Shown: piece by piece, positions 3,756 to 14,066 of the stretch
Position numbering within the stretch: position 1 is the stretch's first letter
Layout of the letters: each line of letters begins with the position of its first letter
The notes under the pieces: generated by a model
The model's database searches: none
What the model saw: the letters and a program-made list of their open reading frames with translations, nothing else
What the model was told of the DNA's origin: nothing
Source of the DNA: Candidatus Omnitrophota bacterium
GTDB taxonomy: Bacteria > Omnitrophota > Gorgyraeia > JABMRG01 > JAFGKX01
Length of the DNA: 14,754 nt
Direction of reading: 5' to 3'
NCBI GenBank assembly: GCA_020354945.1
Contig: CP070655.1
Span: forward strand, 439,096-453,849
Translations under genes and position numbers: made by a program

Positions 3756-4142
3756 ATGAAGATAAAAGACGCAAGACGAAGAAGATATTTAAGGGGAAAG
3801 AAGAAATTGCTTGGCACAAAAGAGAAACCTCGCCTTTGTATATATAGGAGCCTTAATAATATGACTGCTCAATTAATAGATGATGTCGAAGGCAAGACAT
3901 TGTTGTCTGTCTCTACGCTGGATAAAAGATTGAGAGATAATTTTTCCGCCAAAGGCGGATCTGCCTCTGGCAGAAAACGCAATGGTAATATTACCGCTTC
4001 TAGGGCATTGGGCGAGCTTTTAGCTAAAGAAGCTCAGAAGGCAAATATGAAACAGGTCAAATTTGATAAAAGTGGCTATCTTTATCACGGAAGAGTAAAA
4101 GAGTTTGCAGAAGCTTGCCGTAAAAACGGTTTGCGGTTTTAG
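3756..4142 (+). CDS. rplR: 50S ribosomal protein L18 with a 10-aa palindrome-derived insertion
   Basis: PRLCIYRS, AQLIDD..GKTL and FDKSGYLYHGRVK. Confidence 0.98.
   Translation: MKIKDARRRRYLRGKKKLLGTKEKPRLCIYRSLNNMTAQLIDDVEGKTLLSVSTLDKRLRDNFSAKGGSASGRKRNGNITASRALGELLAKEAQKANMKQVKFDKSGYLYHGRVKEFAEACRKNGLRF
3945..3974. repeat. 30-nt double mini-hairpin element, in frame within rplR
   Basis: TCCGCC-AAA-GGCGGA followed by TCTGCC-TCT-GGCAGA; encodes SAKGGSASGR. Confidence 0.85.
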
Positions 4143-8163: not shown

Positions 8164-8195
8164 GCAGTTTTCAGTTTTCAGTTGTTGATAGCTGA
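8164..8195. repeat. 7-bp repeat of the TCAGTT family with a short opposing arm
   Basis: GCAGTTT TCAGTTT TCAGTTG, then TTGA TAGCTGA. Confidence 0.7.
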
Positions 8196-10365: not shown

Positions 10366-11340
10366 ATGGGAATAGCGTGGAAAGAATTTGAAATGCCCAA
10401 AACTCTCGAATGCGATGAATCTACCCTGACAGATACATACGGTAAATTTATAGCAGAACCGCTTGAAAGAGGTTATGGAATAACTCTGGGAAATTCTTTA
10501 CGGAGGGCACTTATATCTTCAGTTGAAGGTAGCGCAGTAACTAATGTAAGATTCGAAGGGGTTCAGCATGAATTTTCTGCTATAGACGGAGTGATTGAGG
10601 ATGTGCCTGAAATTATACTTAATATTAAGAAAGTTGTGATAAGAAGCCATGCCCTAAAACCAAAACCATTATATATAAAAGTTCAACGAAAAGGCAGGGT
10701 TACAGCTAAAGATATAATTGCTGATGAAACAGTGGATATCATAAATAAGGATTTACATATAGCTACATTGACAAAAAATATTAAATTTAATGTAGAAATG
10801 GGTTTAGGCAAAGGCCGTGGATATGTTCCGGCGGAAAAAAATAAAAAAGAAGACGCCCCAATAGGAGTCATTGCTATAGATTCTATTTTTAGCCCCGTTT
10901 CTAAAGTAAATTTCCACGTTGAAGATACCAGGGTAGGCCAGATTATAGATTATGATAAACTTATATTAGAAATATGCACTAACGGAGCGGTGAGCCCTAA
11001 AGAAGCTTTGCTCTATGCATCCAATGTCCTGCAAAGACATTTTGATATTTTTGTCAATTTTGGCAAACTTCCGGAAGACTTAGAGATTACTGAGGAGCCG
11101 GAGGAAGATGAAGAGCTTCAGGCAAAACTTAAAATCCCGGTTACCGAACTTGAACTCTCAGTAAGAAGCGGTAATTGCTTAGAAAAGGCCAAGATAAAGA
11201 CTATAGGCGATTTAGTAGGCAAGACCGAAAGTGAAATGCTGAAATATAGAAACTTTGGCAAAAAGTCATTAAATGAAATTGTTGGCATTTTGAATAATAT
11301 GGGCCTTTCACTTGGAATGAAGATCAAAAAGAAAAAATGA
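10366..11340 (+). CDS. rpoA: DNA-directed RNA polymerase alpha subunit
   Basis: EPLERGYGITLGNSLRR, HEFS, GRGYVPA, ELELSVRS and NFGKKSLNEI; GGAGG Shine-Dalgarno. Confidence 0.99.
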   Translation: MGIAWKEFEMPKTLECDESTLTDTYGKFIAEPLERGYGITLGNSLRRALISSVEGSAVTNVRFEGVQHEFSAIDGVIEDVPEIILNIKKVVIRSHALKPKPLYIKVQRKGRVTAKDIIADETVDIINKDLHIATLTKNIKFNVEMGLGKGRGYVPAEKNKKEDAPIGVIAIDSIFSPVSKVNFHVEDTRVGQIIDYDKLILEICTNGAVSPKEALLYASNVLQRHFDIFVNFGKLPEDLEITEEPEEDEELQAKLKIPVTELELSVRSGNCLEKAKIKTIGDLVGKTESEMLKYRNFGKKSLNEIVGILNNMGLSLGMKIKKKK

Positions 11341-11960
11341 GACACGGCAAATTAAATAAACGTTTCGGGAGAAATAAATCAGCTCGCAAGGAATTAATAC
11401 GGTCCTTAGCGAGAAACGCTCTTATATATTCGAGGATCAAGACGACATTACCTAAAGCCAAGGAGGCGTCCAGGCTTTTAGATAAGCTAATATCACTGGG
11501 CAAGAAAGAGACACTACAAGCAAGGAGAGCGGCTTTTGATATGTTACAGGATAGGTCTTTAGTGTCACGCTTAGTAAAAGATATAGCTCCTTTATTCAAA
11601 GACAGAAATGGTGGATATACTAGAATTATTCAGTTAAACAGTCGCCATGGCGATGGCACCCAAATGGCCATACTTGAGTTGGTAGAAAAACTAAAAGAGG
11701 AGCCAAAGCCGAAGAAGAAGGTAAAGGCCAAAGCCAAAGAAGCCCCGAAGAAAGTTGTAGAGGCGCCCAGGGAGGAACCAAAGCCAATTGAAGAAATAAA
11801 AGAGAAGCCGGCACCTAAGAAGTTAAAAGCTAAGCCTAAAGCGAAGCCTCCAAAAGCTAAGGAAGAACCACAAGAAGCAGAAAAAGTAAAACCTAAACCA
11901 GAGAAGAAAAAAGAGTGGTTTAATCGAATAAAAGGAATATTCAAAAGAAAAAAAGATTAG
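11337..11960 (+). CDS. rplQ: 50S ribosomal protein L17 with a ~90-aa K/E/P/A-rich C-terminal extension
   Basis: MRHG, RIKTTLPKAKE, RNGGYTRII and MAILELVE; ATGA overlap with rpoA. Confidence 0.98.
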   Translation: MRHGKLNKRFGRNKSARKELIRSLARNALIYSRIKTTLPKAKEASRLLDKLISLGKKETLQARRAAFDMLQDRSLVSRLVKDIAPLFKDRNGGYTRIIQLNSRHGDGTQMAILELVEKLKEEPKPKKKVKAKAKEAPKKVVEAPREEPKPIEEIKEKPAPKKLKAKPKAKPPKAKEEPQEAEKVKPKPEKKKEWFNRIKGIFKRKKD

Positions 11961-12029: not shown

Positions 12030-12074
12030 GTTGGGGGGGCAGTTTTGGGGCCAGACCCTGACCCTGCATTAGAA

Positions 12075-13328
12075 ATGAGCAAGACAGTAGCGGAAAAGAT
12101 ATTAAGCGAACATTCGCGCAGGGACTTAAAGGCGGGCGATTATGCCTTATCCAAGGTGGATTTTTGTTTTGGTCAGGATGGGACCAGCGCTCTTATCATA
12201 GATGCTCTGCATAAACTGGGAGTAAAAGAGTTAACAGCAAGAAAAAGATTTTGTATGGTCATAGACCACAGTGCCCCTTCGCCAAATATAGGAATTTCAG
12301 CAGTGCATGCCAAAATGCGAAAATTTGCTGCTCGAAATAAGCTGCGCTTATATGATATAGGCTGTGGTGTATGCCACCAGGTAATATTAGAATCCGGAAA
12401 TGTACTTCCAGGCGATTTAGTAGTAGGGGCAGATTCTCACACCTGTACTTACGGCGCATTAGGGGCATTGGCGACGGGTTTCGGTTCTACAGATTTAGCT
12501 ATAACATTAGCCAGCGGCAAAAACTGGTTTAAAGTTCCAGAGACTATCAAGATAATAATAGATGGCAAATTGCCAAAGGGTGTTTATTCAAAGGATATAA
12601 TTTTGCATATTATAGGGGATTTAGGTGCTGATGGCTGCACCTATAACTCAATTGAATTTACAGGCAATACAGTGGCAGCTCTAACTGTTGATGCGCGCTT
12701 CACTATTTCTAATATGGCTGTTGAGATGGGAGCCAAATGCGGCATTATGTATCCTGATAAAAAGGTGATTAGCTGGCTTAAGAAAAGAGGTAAAAAGATT
12801 AAAAGAAAAGTCTATCCGGATAAAGATGCCGATTATGTTAGCGTAAAAAGATATGATGCCAGCAAACTTATTCCAAAGATATCTAAACCCCATACAGTCG
12901 ATAACGTATCCAATGTTAAAGCGGTTTCCGGAAAACCGGTAAATTTAGCCTATATTGGAACGTGCACTAATGGAAGTTTGGAAGACCTGGTGATAGCTTC
13001 TAAAATACTTAAGGACAAAACAATAGCTGATAATGTGAGATTGATTATAGCGCCTGCATCAAGACAGATTTATCTGGAGGCTATGAGAAAGGGGATTATC
13101 CGGACATTCATTGAAGCCGGAGGCAATGTAGTTACCCCGGGATGCGGGCCCTGCGTAGGCACTCACGATGGTGTTCCTTCCGATGGCGAGGTTGTAATAT
13201 CTACAGCGAATAGAAATTTTAAAGGCAGAATGGGCAACCCGGATGCTTTTATCTATTTAGCTTCACCGGCAACAGTAGCTGCATCGGCGTTAACAGGAAA
13301 GATAACCGATCCAAGGAGATATGCATAA
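12075..13328 (+). CDS. leuC: 3-isopropylmalate dehydratase / homoaconitase family large subunit (short HacA-like type)
   Basis: KTVAEKILS, IDH, GVCHQV, GADSHTCTYGA, IGTCTNG, PGCGPCVG, STANRNFKGRMG and YLASP. ATG 12075 preferred over TTG 12045. Substrate uncertain. Confidence 0.88.
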   Translation: MSKTVAEKILSEHSRRDLKAGDYALSKVDFCFGQDGTSALIIDALHKLGVKELTARKRFCMVIDHSAPSPNIGISAVHAKMRKFAARNKLRLYDIGCGVCHQVILESGNVLPGDLVVGADSHTCTYGALGALATGFGSTDLAITLASGKNWFKVPETIKIIIDGKLPKGVYSKDIILHIIGDLGADGCTYNSIEFTGNTVAALTVDARFTISNMAVEMGAKCGIMYPDKKVISWLKKRGKKIKRKVYPDKDADYVSVKRYDASKLIPKISKPHTVDNVSNVKAVSGKPVNLAYIGTCTNGSLEDLVIASKILKDKTIADNVRLIIAPASRQIYLEAMRKGIIRTFIEAGGNVVTPGCGPCVGTHDGVPSDGEVVISTANRNFKGRMGNPDAFIYLASPATVAASALTGKITDPRRYA

Positions 13329-13478
13329 TTTTTACATACTTGCCTCCGCTTGTCGCTCGCAAAAAGAATTCTTCGCCAGAGGCGAAGGGCACTTTTTGCT
13401 CGCTGTGGCAAAAATTGCTCGCTTCTTGCCGTTGTTCGCGCAATTTTTGACAGTCACTCCGACAAGCATGCAAAAATT
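13327..13478. repeat. ~150-nt three-way-junction hairpin element with TCGCTC linkers
   Basis: Outer arms AATTTTTACATACTTG / CAAGCATGCAAAAATT and GCTTGTCG / CGACAAGC. Branch 1 is GCAAAAAG..CTTCGCC-AGA-GGCGAAG..CTTTTTGC. Branch 2 is CAAAAATTGC..GCAATTTTTG. Confidence 0.85.
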
Positions 13479-13508
13479 TTAAAGAAAAAGGTGTTTTTTA
13501 AGAAAAAA

Positions 13509-14066
13509 ATGGAACTTAAAGGAAAAGCGCATAAATTTGGGGATGATGTAAATACAGACTATATTATATCCGGAAGATATAAATTTAAGATTCAAGACCC
13601 GCATGAACTGGCAAAACACTTAATGGAAGATTTAAAATCTGATTTTTATAAAAAAATTTCCGCTGGAGGCGAATCCGCCTCTGCCAAAGGCAGATGCGCC
13701 CCAGGCGCAAAACGTGGAAAAAGAGGAGATTTTATAGTTGCCGGTAGGAATTTTGGATGCGGTTCGTCCCGTGAACAGGCCCCCTTAGCCATAAAATACG
13801 CAGGAGTTTGTGCTGTTTTAGCAAAATCTTTTGCCAGGATTTTCTTTAGAAACAGCATCAATATAGGCCTTATGCTTTTAGAATGTGATACAGATGCCAT
13901 TTCAGATGGCGATTATCTCCTCGTCAACATAAAAAGGGGGCTTGTATATAACAAAACAAAAAATATGAAGATTCAAATCAGGCCTTTACCAAATTTTATA
14001 CTAAAGATTTTAAAGGACGGCGGCCTGGTCAATCATTTTAAAAGACATAAGGGGTTTAAGTTTTAA
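13509..14066 (+). CDS. leuD: 3-isopropylmalate dehydratase / homoaconitase family small subunit with a 20-aa insertion
   Basis: GKAHKFGDDVNTDYII, VAGRNFGCGSSREQAP, AKSFARIFFRN and GGL. The conserved domain begins at ATG 13509. Confidence 0.88.
   Translation: MELKGKAHKFGDDVNTDYIISGRYKFKIQDPHELAKHLMEDLKSDFYKKISAGGESASAKGRCAPGAKRGKRGDFIVAGRNFGCGSSREQAPLAIKYAGVCAVLAKSFARIFFRNSINIGLMLLECDTDAISDGDYLLVNIKRGLVYNKTKNMKIQIRPLPNFILKILKDGGLVNHFKRHKGFKF
13659..13718. repeat. 60-nt in-frame, apparently nested, mini-hairpin insertion in leuD
   Basis: TCCGCTGGAGGCGAA TCCGCC [TCTGCC-AAA-GGCAGA TGCGCC-CCA-GGCGCA] AAA CGTGGA; encodes SAGGESASAKGRCAPGAKRG. Confidence 0.8.

Follow-up and report, generated by a model that had tools for sequence, protein, structure and literature searches.

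A 60-nt in-frame insert in leuD of an Omnitrophota bacterium, read as two nested copies of a 30-nt double-hairpin element

How does a dehydratase gene come to contain 20 additional codons that form a row of small GC-rich hairpins? The question is raised by leuD in a stretch of 14,754 nt from a Candidatus Omnitrophota bacterium (GenBank assembly GCA_020354945.1, contig CP070655.1, positions 439,096 to 453,849), referred to below as the window. The source is a metagenome-assembled genome (MAG; G000 in the locus designations below), a 1.14-Mb scaffold of 39% GC with 129 gaps of 100 N and 89% completeness, and the named homologues closest to its LeuD and PanE proteins belong to Candidatus Omnitrophota. 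The LeuD protein matches TIGR02087 with 194.7 bits (cut-off 108.95) and carries the GCGSSRE loop at residues 83-89, which identifies it as a LeuD/HacB small subunit. The match falls into two stretches flanking the insert, the bases of which, re-read at 13659-13718, are exactly those given in a preliminary description of the window. Probably, a 30-nt non-autonomous mobile element is present twice in these 60 nt, with one copy lodged within the other. The parts of the locus are the following.

Positions 13509 to 14066, plus strand: leuD, small subunit of an archaeal-type LeuD/HacB dehydratase and host gene of the insert (open reading frame, translation, TIGR02087).
Positions 13656 to 13658, plus strand: left target flank ATT (Ile50), already present in the empty site (G001 reads ...AAAAAAATT|AAAAAG...).
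Positions 13659 to 13718, plus strand: whole in-frame insert, 60 nt or 20 residues, encoding SAGGESASAKGRCAPGAKRG (orthologue comparison, spanning contig, AlphaFold).
Positions 13659 to 13673, plus strand: outer element, hairpin 1, TCCGCT (13659-13664), GGA (13665-13667), GGCGAA (13668-13673), decayed to four Watson-Crick pairs and one G.T pair (sequence; equals SAGGE of P0003).
Positions 13674 to 13679, plus strand: outer element, 5' arm of hairpin 2, TCCGCC (sequence; P0003 reads an uninterrupted SA-KGG here).
Positions 13680 to 13709, plus strand: inner element, two perfect hairpins with 6-bp stems and 3-nt loops (6-3-6), TCTGCC-AAA-GGCAGA (13680-13694) and TGCGCC-CCA-GGCGCA (13695-13709) (sequence; its 10 residues are missing from P0003).
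Positions 13710 to 13718, plus strand: outer element, hairpin 2, loop AAA (13710-13712) and decayed 3' arm CGTGGA (13713-13718) (sequence; KRG here, KGG in P0003).
Positions 13719 to 13721, plus strand: right target flank AAA (Lys), already present in the empty site (orthologue comparison).

Comparisons with relatives indicated a true insertion. In DNA and protein alignments exactly 60 nt, or 20 residues, are absent from all 15 aligned orthologues, including that of G001, a genome of the same genus, which reads TATAAAAAAATT|AAAAAGGGAGATTTT; the loci of 19 relatives had been fetched, four of which were left out as unparsed by the motif filter. The insert begins between codons 50 and 51, its first codon being 51. 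In the nearest solved structure, 2PKP, it has no counterpart, and the alignment breaks there. The spacing from NTD to GCGSSRE is 53-55 residues in all 76 metagenome LeuD relatives that could be parsed (of 80) versus 75 residues here; these relatives are distant (61% identity or less), have the empty site throughout and include no intermediate allele. Run X1 yielded a separate contig of 525 nt that spans 13521-14040, insert included, with no gap and thus rules out an artefact of MAG assembly; as X1 may be the source sample, this contig checks the assembly and does not represent an independent organism. The clean 60-nt indel proposed in the preliminary description is therefore confirmed at these boundaries, and misassembly can be discarded. 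The hairpins also go beyond chance, since GC-rich tandem 6-3-6 dimers occur four times in the genome versus 0, 0, 0, 0 and 1 times in five shuffles.

Read from 5' to 3', the insert consists of a hairpin, a 5' arm, two hairpins, and a loop with a 3' arm. A tandem array or in-register duplication was rejected as its origin, because adjacent 5' arms and a trailing loop and 3' arm cannot result in this way. In the predicted RNA fold of the 60-mer (-29 kcal/mol, z -2.9) an outer stem surrounds three hairpins, and the region of the decayed 3' arm (13713-13718) pairs with 13659-13663. A variant pair similar to the inner element, TCAGCC-AAA-GGCAGA (one mismatch) followed by TGCGCC-TCT-GGCGCA, is found at G021:C17.

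The preliminary description had read this order as an inner dimer inside an outer one, and a related protein bears it out. P0003 (184 aa, from ENA, LeuD of 91% identity) reads ...FYKKI-SAGGESAKGG-KKGDF... and thus carries an insert of only 10 residues at the same site; it also shares the derived LKSDFYKKI with the LeuD studied here. SAGGESAKGG corresponds to the predicted outer dimer alone, with the peptide of the second hairpin intact, and the 10 extra residues present here, SAKGRCAPGA, fall exactly at the predicted position of the inner dimer. The empty site is found in P0004 (93% identical) and P0005 (89%), both of 165 aa, in G001, and in a contig of run X2, in which 13659-13724 are replaced by AAAAAG with a net loss of 60 nt; X2 also yielded a 97-nt contig across the filled site. 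Alleles of 0, 30 and 60 nt, as anticipated, therefore all exist, the 30-nt form being known as a protein only. Whether P0003 is ancestral or has precisely lost the inner copy, the inner 30 nt behave as a discrete unit. Run X4 contributes a 15-nt allele lacking 13661-13705. Because its remaining 15 nt are identical to the ends of the 60-nt form and are joined at a CGC microhomology, this allele is best read as a derivative that would have arisen by a 45-nt deletion from the 60-nt form, not as an ancestor. Runs X2 to X4 cover parts of the stretch, and no conclusion on habitat or abundance is drawn from them.

The same DNA is also found elsewhere. A pattern derived from the inner dimer and from a copy in rplR of the window (see below) matched 8 of 41 related genomes, the reversed pattern none of the 41. 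When four positions of the stems were allowed to vary, the matches extended to 100 of 401 genomes of this class (probably Omnitrophota), with 1-20 copies each, and the reversed control again matched none (0/401). A scan of one genome per GTDB species revealed at least 126 loci, and among the matches listed all are in MAGs, labelled as many Patescibacteria lineages, Omnitrophota, Kiritimatiellae, Lentisphaerae, Verrucomicrobiota, Planctomycetales, Ignavibacteriota, Chloroflexota, Firestonebacteria, Desulfotomaculaceae, Bacteroidota and 'Gammaproteobacteria'. The family consensus is TCCGCC-NNA-GGCGGA-TCCGCC-TNN-GGCGGA, that is 30 nt forming two adjoining hairpins with 6-bp stems and 3-nt loops. 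Its reverse complement has the same form, so that the element is without intrinsic orientation. In viral contigs only two loci were detected, with the element at the extreme end or start of an open reading frame (ORF), which is uninformative on a vector. BLAST of a canonical copy with short flanks against PLSDB plasmids and INPHARED phages gave no match, a weak negative with the low-complexity filter on. No description of the element was found in the literature searched by sequence, peptide and keyword, the matches to a 12-mer core being cloning primers, and the 30-nt double-hairpin family seems not to have been described previously.

Copying is suggested by G331, where one and the same variant 30-mer, identical even in its loops, recurs at three places whose flanks are unrelated (ungapped identity 0.20-0.33); this fits a templated copy-and-paste from a master copy. 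G028 contains larger derivatives: among two sets of loci, L180, L183, L188, L191-L193 and L195-L197 on the one hand and L184, L185, L189 and L194 on the other, the second hairpin is in some cases extended to a stem-loop of about 30 nt and in others a foreign 33-nt hairpin lies within the first hairpin, while in L181 and L182 the loops are expanded to 9-16 nt.

To determine which fold is conserved, two models were compared on 42 sequences, namely the two window copies, 38 non-canonical copies picked from the matches listed for the 401 genomes, and two others; the set is thus selected, and some of its members are related. With two hairpins, 98.6% of the cells are paired, 34 double-sided changes are seen, and the covariation score is 0.222, values that were reached in none of 500 shuffles. 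A single long hairpin gives 87.6% pairing, three double-sided changes and a score of 0.034, below most shuffles. On these pair counts a single long hairpin or cruciform was rejected as the conserved fold; the conserved A9 and T22 (see below) would pair there. Five compensated stem variants are present, TCAGCC/GGCTGA, TCTGCC/GGCAGA, TTCGCC/GGCGAA, TCGGCC/GGCCGA and TGCGCC/GGCGCA, and the changes are compensated within each 15-nt hairpin. Compensatory stem variation, claimed at the outset from leuD, is thus well supported; the structure itself, as was also proposed, may be what is recognised.

Among the listed copies, position 9 is A in 117/125 and position 22 is T in 119/125. These two residues are nearly invariant although they are located in the loops of the two-hairpin fold, and together with the inner arms they form a perfect 14-bp palindrome, AGGCGGATCCGCCT, with a central GATC. 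Two independent nested insertions lie directly 5' of this GATC. The palindrome could be a putative binding or cutting site for a dimeric protein.

Three further copies were identified in the same genome, one in the window and two outside it.

Positions 3945 to 3974 of the window, plus strand: copy in rplR (L18), TCCGCC-AAA-GGCGGA-TCTGCC-TCT-GGCAGA, encoding SAKGGSASGR; a clean 30-nt insertion between codons.
G000:C1:789131-789190 (L286), outside the window: second 60-nt nested composite, in a panE-like (2-dehydropantoate 2-reductase) gene; coding strand TCCGCC-AGT-GGGGGA-TC[TCAGCC-AAA-GGCTGA-CCAGCC-TCG-GGCTGG]CGCC-TCC-GGCGGA, the inner copy in brackets.
G000:C1:245878-245907 (L287), outside the window: copy in a comEC-like gene, CCCGCC-GGA-GGCGGA-TCCGCA-TTT-GGCGGA, encoding PAGGGSAFGG.

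The rplR copy is a clean 30 nt absent from all four aligned L18 orthologues (G001, G002, G003 and G012), the empty site in G001 being GATAATTTT|AAACAC; its predicted RNA fold has two hairpins (-17.9 kcal/mol, z -3.95). The reading phase in panE is 0 for the outer copy and a different one for the inner copy. G001, the flanks of which are 95-96% identical, lacks the 60 nt, as do G002, G003 and G006; a metagenome PanE protein of 97% identity, P0122, has the composite, empty forms were also found, and a 30-nt intermediate was not found in the PanE relatives searched. The inner panE copy lies at TC^CGCC (GGCG^GATC on the other strand), where four G028 copies are likewise split by another hairpin, of 33 nt. 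Together with these nested G028 composites, panE lends support to the self-targeting postulated from leuD. The comEC copy is located directly before the metallo-beta-lactamase domain and is absent from G001, with two bases after the copy differing from the empty site. In leuD, rplR and comEC the insertions lie between codons. The congener G001 has none of the four loci of this genome, which amount to 180 nt and of which two are nested; G001 itself harbors a single canonical hairpin. The absence of the four loci points to a recent burst of the element in this lineage, in agreement with the recent activity suggested earlier.

The filled and empty sites of G000 and G001 could be compared directly.

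leuD, empty site in G001: ATT^AAA
rplR, empty site in G001: TTT^AAA
panE-like gene, empty site in G001: GCT^AAG
comEC-like gene, empty site in G001: CTT^AAA

No target duplication is present in any of the four pairs. AAACGTGGA, which might be taken for one in leuD, was rejected because the ancestral flank AAAAAGGGA matches it at only 6/9 bases. In 125 listed copies the only flank signal is T at -3 to -1 and A at +1 to +3 (T at -2 in 107/125, A at +2 in 97/125), and it is the same in 63 coding and 36 probably non-coding copies. Since the empty sites of G001 already carry these flanks, they belong to the target and not to the element, and the target consensus is T^AA, T-rich before and A-rich after. 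The preliminary description placed the insert between a T run and AAA; the inner copy follows CC, and T run and AAA, as all four empty sites in G001 indicate, are target sequence.

Insertion into genes has consequences at the protein level. ORFs of 150 aa or more contain 72 of the 126 listed copies, and these 72 divide 63:6:3 by phase. Phase 0 specifies SAxGGSAxGG in either orientation, the other phases PPxADPPxA or RQRRIRLWR. Target motifs (TTAA, TTTAAA and similar) in the long ORFs of the present genome are distributed about 50:0:50 by phase, phase 1 being impossible because TAA is a stop codon; this control is from one genome, the observed phases are from many. The stem variant TCAGCC/GGCTGA would give TGA in phase 0, and in this genome it is found only in another phase, in panE. 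From the phase bias we infer that the insert is retained and translated in the protein. For 37 of 47 scanned host ORFs (65 ORFs cover copies) a Pfam match was obtained, and the host genes include those for DnaG, PurA, class I and II tRNA synthetases, PheT, S3, S9, L15, RpoC, DnaE, GrpE, DnaJ, PGK, FolD, HemB, MraY and others.

An AlphaFold2 model of LeuD based on an alignment of 64 sequences has a mean predicted local distance difference test (pLDDT) score of 85.6 and a predicted template modelling (pTM) score of 0.84. Values of pLDDT below 50 are confined to residues 53-71, that is to the insert, which is located between a helix (46-52) and a strand (75-78) leading to the GCGSSRE loop. The insert is thus predicted to be a tolerated disordered loop, as the loop position considered in the preliminary description would have it. 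In view of the lack of evidence for a benefit to leuD, it is read as selfish DNA.

From these data the following course of events emerges. A first dimer entered leuD between ATT and AAA without target duplication, giving SAGGESAKGG, which would survive in the sister lineage represented by P0003. A second dimer is lodged in hairpin 2 of the first one, behind that hairpin's 5' arm; the outcome is absent from the congeneric genome, and a relative carries what is best read as a form of it shortened by 45 nt. For the family, too, the data show insertion at T^AA without duplication and into resident copies, complementarity upheld in each hairpin, amplification of variants inside a genome and deletion at a microhomology. 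Beyond this, resident copies would serve as templates for new DNA, which would go in wherever DNA becomes single-stranded for a time, at AT-rich T^AA sites or in the loops or the dyad of resident copies, by means of an enzyme acting in trans that would read the folded single-stranded hairpins. The insert would be transcribed and translated and would survive only where its peptide is harmless, i.e. in the SAxGG phase and in a surface loop. As the first candidate for the mobilising enzyme, a HUH/Y1 transposase resembling the REP-associated tyrosine transposases (RAYTs; REP, repetitive extragenic palindromic sequence), of the kind encoded by this genome, may be put forward tentatively, the assignment being more doubtful than not. 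The ORF in question (209 aa, G000:C1:1123640-1124269, L203:1474-2103) matches PF01797, and NF047646 with 70.2 bits, below the cut-off of 80. It is solitary, between an O-antigen-ligase-like membrane protein and ilvD, both neighbours being named by reading their sequences.

A number of observations weigh against this proposal. PF01797 (Y1_Tnp) is found in 36 of the 41 relatives regardless of the presence of the element, no family hairpins flank the RAYT-like ORF of this genome, and the GTAG tag cut by RAYTs according to the text of PMC3733652 is absent from the element in the 125 listed copies. RAYT as mobiliser is thus unsupported by co-occurrence or flanking repeats, and no enzyme is linked to the element. 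A fully canonical copy that might have served as source is missing from this genome, which is 89% complete with 129 gaps. Identical copies in G206, G125 and G209 lie within larger repeats and are not independent insertions. In leuD, all four loops end in A, so that TNN, which the family typically has as the loop of its second hairpin, is missing, and the inner copy, sitting after CC and not after T, departs from the usual target. The data are compatible both with a gain of the inner copy here and with its precise loss in P0003, the 30-nt allele being known as a protein only. Trimers, arrays or nestings with canonical stems were detected in none of the 401 genomes by a pattern that would miss variant stems such as those found here; nesting is therefore apparently uncommon or diverges quickly. 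Palindrome-correcting template switches, instead of selection, could be the source of the compensated stems.

Template switching is also the basis of the main rival explanation, by which the element would spread without any transposase. A nascent end in a T run would anneal beside another copy, 30 nt would be copied, and the strand would return via an A run, with the hairpins stalling the polymerase and thereby favouring the switch. T-rich and A-rich flanks at coding and non-coding copies alike, the lack of target duplication at the four empty sites and the failure of any transposase to correlate with the element are all in line with this, and the 45-nt deletion allele between CGC microhomologies demonstrates that slippage does occur at this locus. 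On the other hand, the flanks offer only about 3 nt of microhomology of low information, the nested copies lie at CC^AAA and TC^CGCC, where there is neither a T nor an A run, and near-identical stems across phyla are left unexplained. Spread by template switching is therefore regarded as unlikely, but it is the strongest competitor of a mobile element. Less probable still, with only a slight chance of being correct, is that the hairpins are selected cis-acting RNA structures, such as blocks to 3'-exonucleases, sites of processing or pauses in translation, which would owe their persistence to a role in the transcript. In G028, many copies indeed occupy the gaps between genes belonging to a single operon, an ABC-transporter operon being one example, as E. 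coli REPs do, and stem complementarity is maintained; with T before and A after the hairpins on both strands, they would resemble intrinsic terminators in neither direction. Yet related genomes differ in copy number between 0 and 20, a constraint on the peptide is indicated by the phase bias, and neither the congener nor any other orthologue examined has the leuD, rplR, panE and comEC copies, so that no conserved function exists at these places.

Two other explanations can be dealt with briefly. The insert might have arisen locally by slippage or duplication of a Gly/Ser/Ala-rich linker that was favoured as protein, the palindromes being due to chance or codon choice. Its peptide, located in a loop, is of low complexity, a second KRG comes after the first, and AAACGTGGA and AAAAGAGGA agree at 7/9 bases, but the ancestral flank AAAAAGGGA agrees at 6/9 only. 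Moreover, non-coding copies exist, and the same GC-rich 30-nt DNA recurs in unrelated genes of many phyla despite a genome of 39% GC here; a local origin is already contradicted by the distribution of the family and is very improbable. An artefact of assembly or sequencing might be suspected because all listed carriers are MAGs and the present genome is scaffolded across 129 gaps of 100 N. The spanning X1 contig, the reading frames kept, the decayed and compensated variants and an allelic series in independent data speak against it, as do carriers that by their record titles come from many studies and assemblers, contigs of 1.6 Mb among them; its probability is negligible.

Of the known systems, intragenic REPs, Rickettsia palindromic elements and mitochondrial double-hairpin elements come closest to the element, read as mobile DNA, and it shares their logic. 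According to the text of PMC3733652 (Di Nocera et al. 2013), REPs carry GTAG or CGTC tags, and intragenic REP dimers encode 20-30 aa, notably in Opitutus terrae and Rickettsia. Like REPs as presented there, the family consists of short GC-rich stem-loops, often in close dimers, dispersed and variable in copy number between relatives, found between operon genes and in some cases wholly inside ORFs of known proteins, where they are thought to lie in linkers or loops, in genomes in which RAYT genes are common. REPs are short GC-rich palindromic stem-loops of 20-40 bp that are repeated, and here stems of 6 bp with loops of 3 nt occur in 1-20 copies. A GTAG or CGTC tag as described in PMC3733652 is lacking in the 125 listed copies, in which the element starts with TCCGCC and ends with GGCGGA between T and A flanks; nor is the location mainly extragenic, since the majority of the listed copies (72/126, as above) are within long ORFs, although intergenic copies also exist. 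Again unlike REPs in that account, 15-nt units abut without spacer, a dimer encodes 10 and not 20-30 aa, one phase is dominant, and the same stems recur across many phyla. Both TCCGCC and GGCGGA are absent from the text of PMC3733652, the figures and.xls supplements of which lie outside that comparison.

Rickettsia palindromic elements (RPEs) are likewise palindromic selfish DNA lying in frame in genes for conserved proteins and kept in the protein, a retention that for the present element is suggested by the phase bias. RPE-1 is about 100-150 bp long and known only from Rickettsia. The element described here, with 30 nt and carriers in many phyla, is set apart from RPEs by this description. 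MITEs, the miniature inverted-repeat transposable elements, are similar in being small, non-autonomous and dispersed, but the present element, being wholly two hairpins, has no core framed by terminal inverted repeats, and target-site duplication is absent at 4/4 sites. Usual MITEs are far larger than 30 nt.

The mitochondrial double-hairpin elements (DHEs) and repetitive hairpin-forming elements are described in PMC10085805 and PMC2800124 as pairs of neighbouring GC-rich hairpins, a few tens of nt long, in genomes rich in AT. According to the same papers, they are located in intergenic DNA, rRNA genes and, less often, protein genes, and inserted copies stay in transcripts; for the Allomyces elements no flanking duplications are reported, stems are conserved and loops variable, and identical copies in different species are read as horizontal transfer. 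The present element shares two adjacent GC-rich hairpins as a dispersed unit and the absence of a flanking duplication at all four sites. The DHEs of these sources are organellar, in fungi and sponges, whereas the element here is in bacterial MAGs of many phyla, and the two were compared by description only.

It is possible, though we would not call it likely, that the element is the smallest mobile DNA known in bacteria: a gene-less double hairpin of 30 nt, or even 15 nt, moving between phyla (MAGs of Patescibacteria, Omnitrophota, the Planctomycetes-Verrucomicrobia-Chlamydiae group, Ignavibacteriota, Chloroflexota and Firmicutes), writing SAxGGSAxGG into essential proteins and preferentially re-entering its own copies. 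It would be moved by an unrecognised enzyme or by the replication machinery and might be a bacterial counterpart, or even the ancestor, of the mitochondrial DHEs. If the reading of the insert as nested copies of a mobile element holds, a 30-nt sequence without coding capacity of its own has invaded conserved genes for ribosomal proteins, RNA polymerase, primase and tRNA synthetases across a large share of uncultured bacteria, and what is known of RPEs, intragenic REPs and mitochondrial DHEs would be extended to a unit that is far smaller and to a far broader range of hosts. The leuD alleles of 0, 30 and 60 nt with the deletion derivative would define a recent event, so that mobility, self-nesting and loss are testable in metagenome time series, and the element would provide a small substrate in the search for whatever enzyme or replication pathway mobilises hairpin DNA. 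Marker-gene alignments and phylogenies of the candidate phyla radiation and Omnitrophota would contain homoplastic 10-aa inserts, which should be masked and not be taken for shared ancestry.

Other repeats were noticed in the window, which holds a ribosomal-protein operon followed by leuC (12045-13328) and leuD. The leuC-leuD spacer (13329-13508, about 200 nt) is a polymorphic insertion, as contigs of X1, X2 and X3 have 20-22 nt in place of 13318-13520, and summed contig depth there is about 30 versus about 7. BLAST gave 15 partial matches to it in roughly ten other places of the genome with 84-97% identity, and it represents a second dispersed repeat family of about 130 nt. A perfect hairpin, TTCGCC-AGA-GGCGAA, is located in this spacer at 13372-13386. 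In the ribosomal-gene spacers 854-925, 1815-1873, 2401-2465, 2652-2739 and 8164-8189, inverted (CAGTT)n/(AACTG)n arms surround a small GC hairpin, e.g. AGCC-GAT-GGCT; these may be operon-internal RNA structures. An analogue is present in G028, where arms rich in ACCAA/TTGGT surround family hairpins between the genes of the ABC-transporter operon. Finally, two 33-nt direct repeats rich in Lys and Glu codons, 105 nt apart, were detected at 11685-11822, within the ORF 11337-11960 that follows the ORF 10366-11340.

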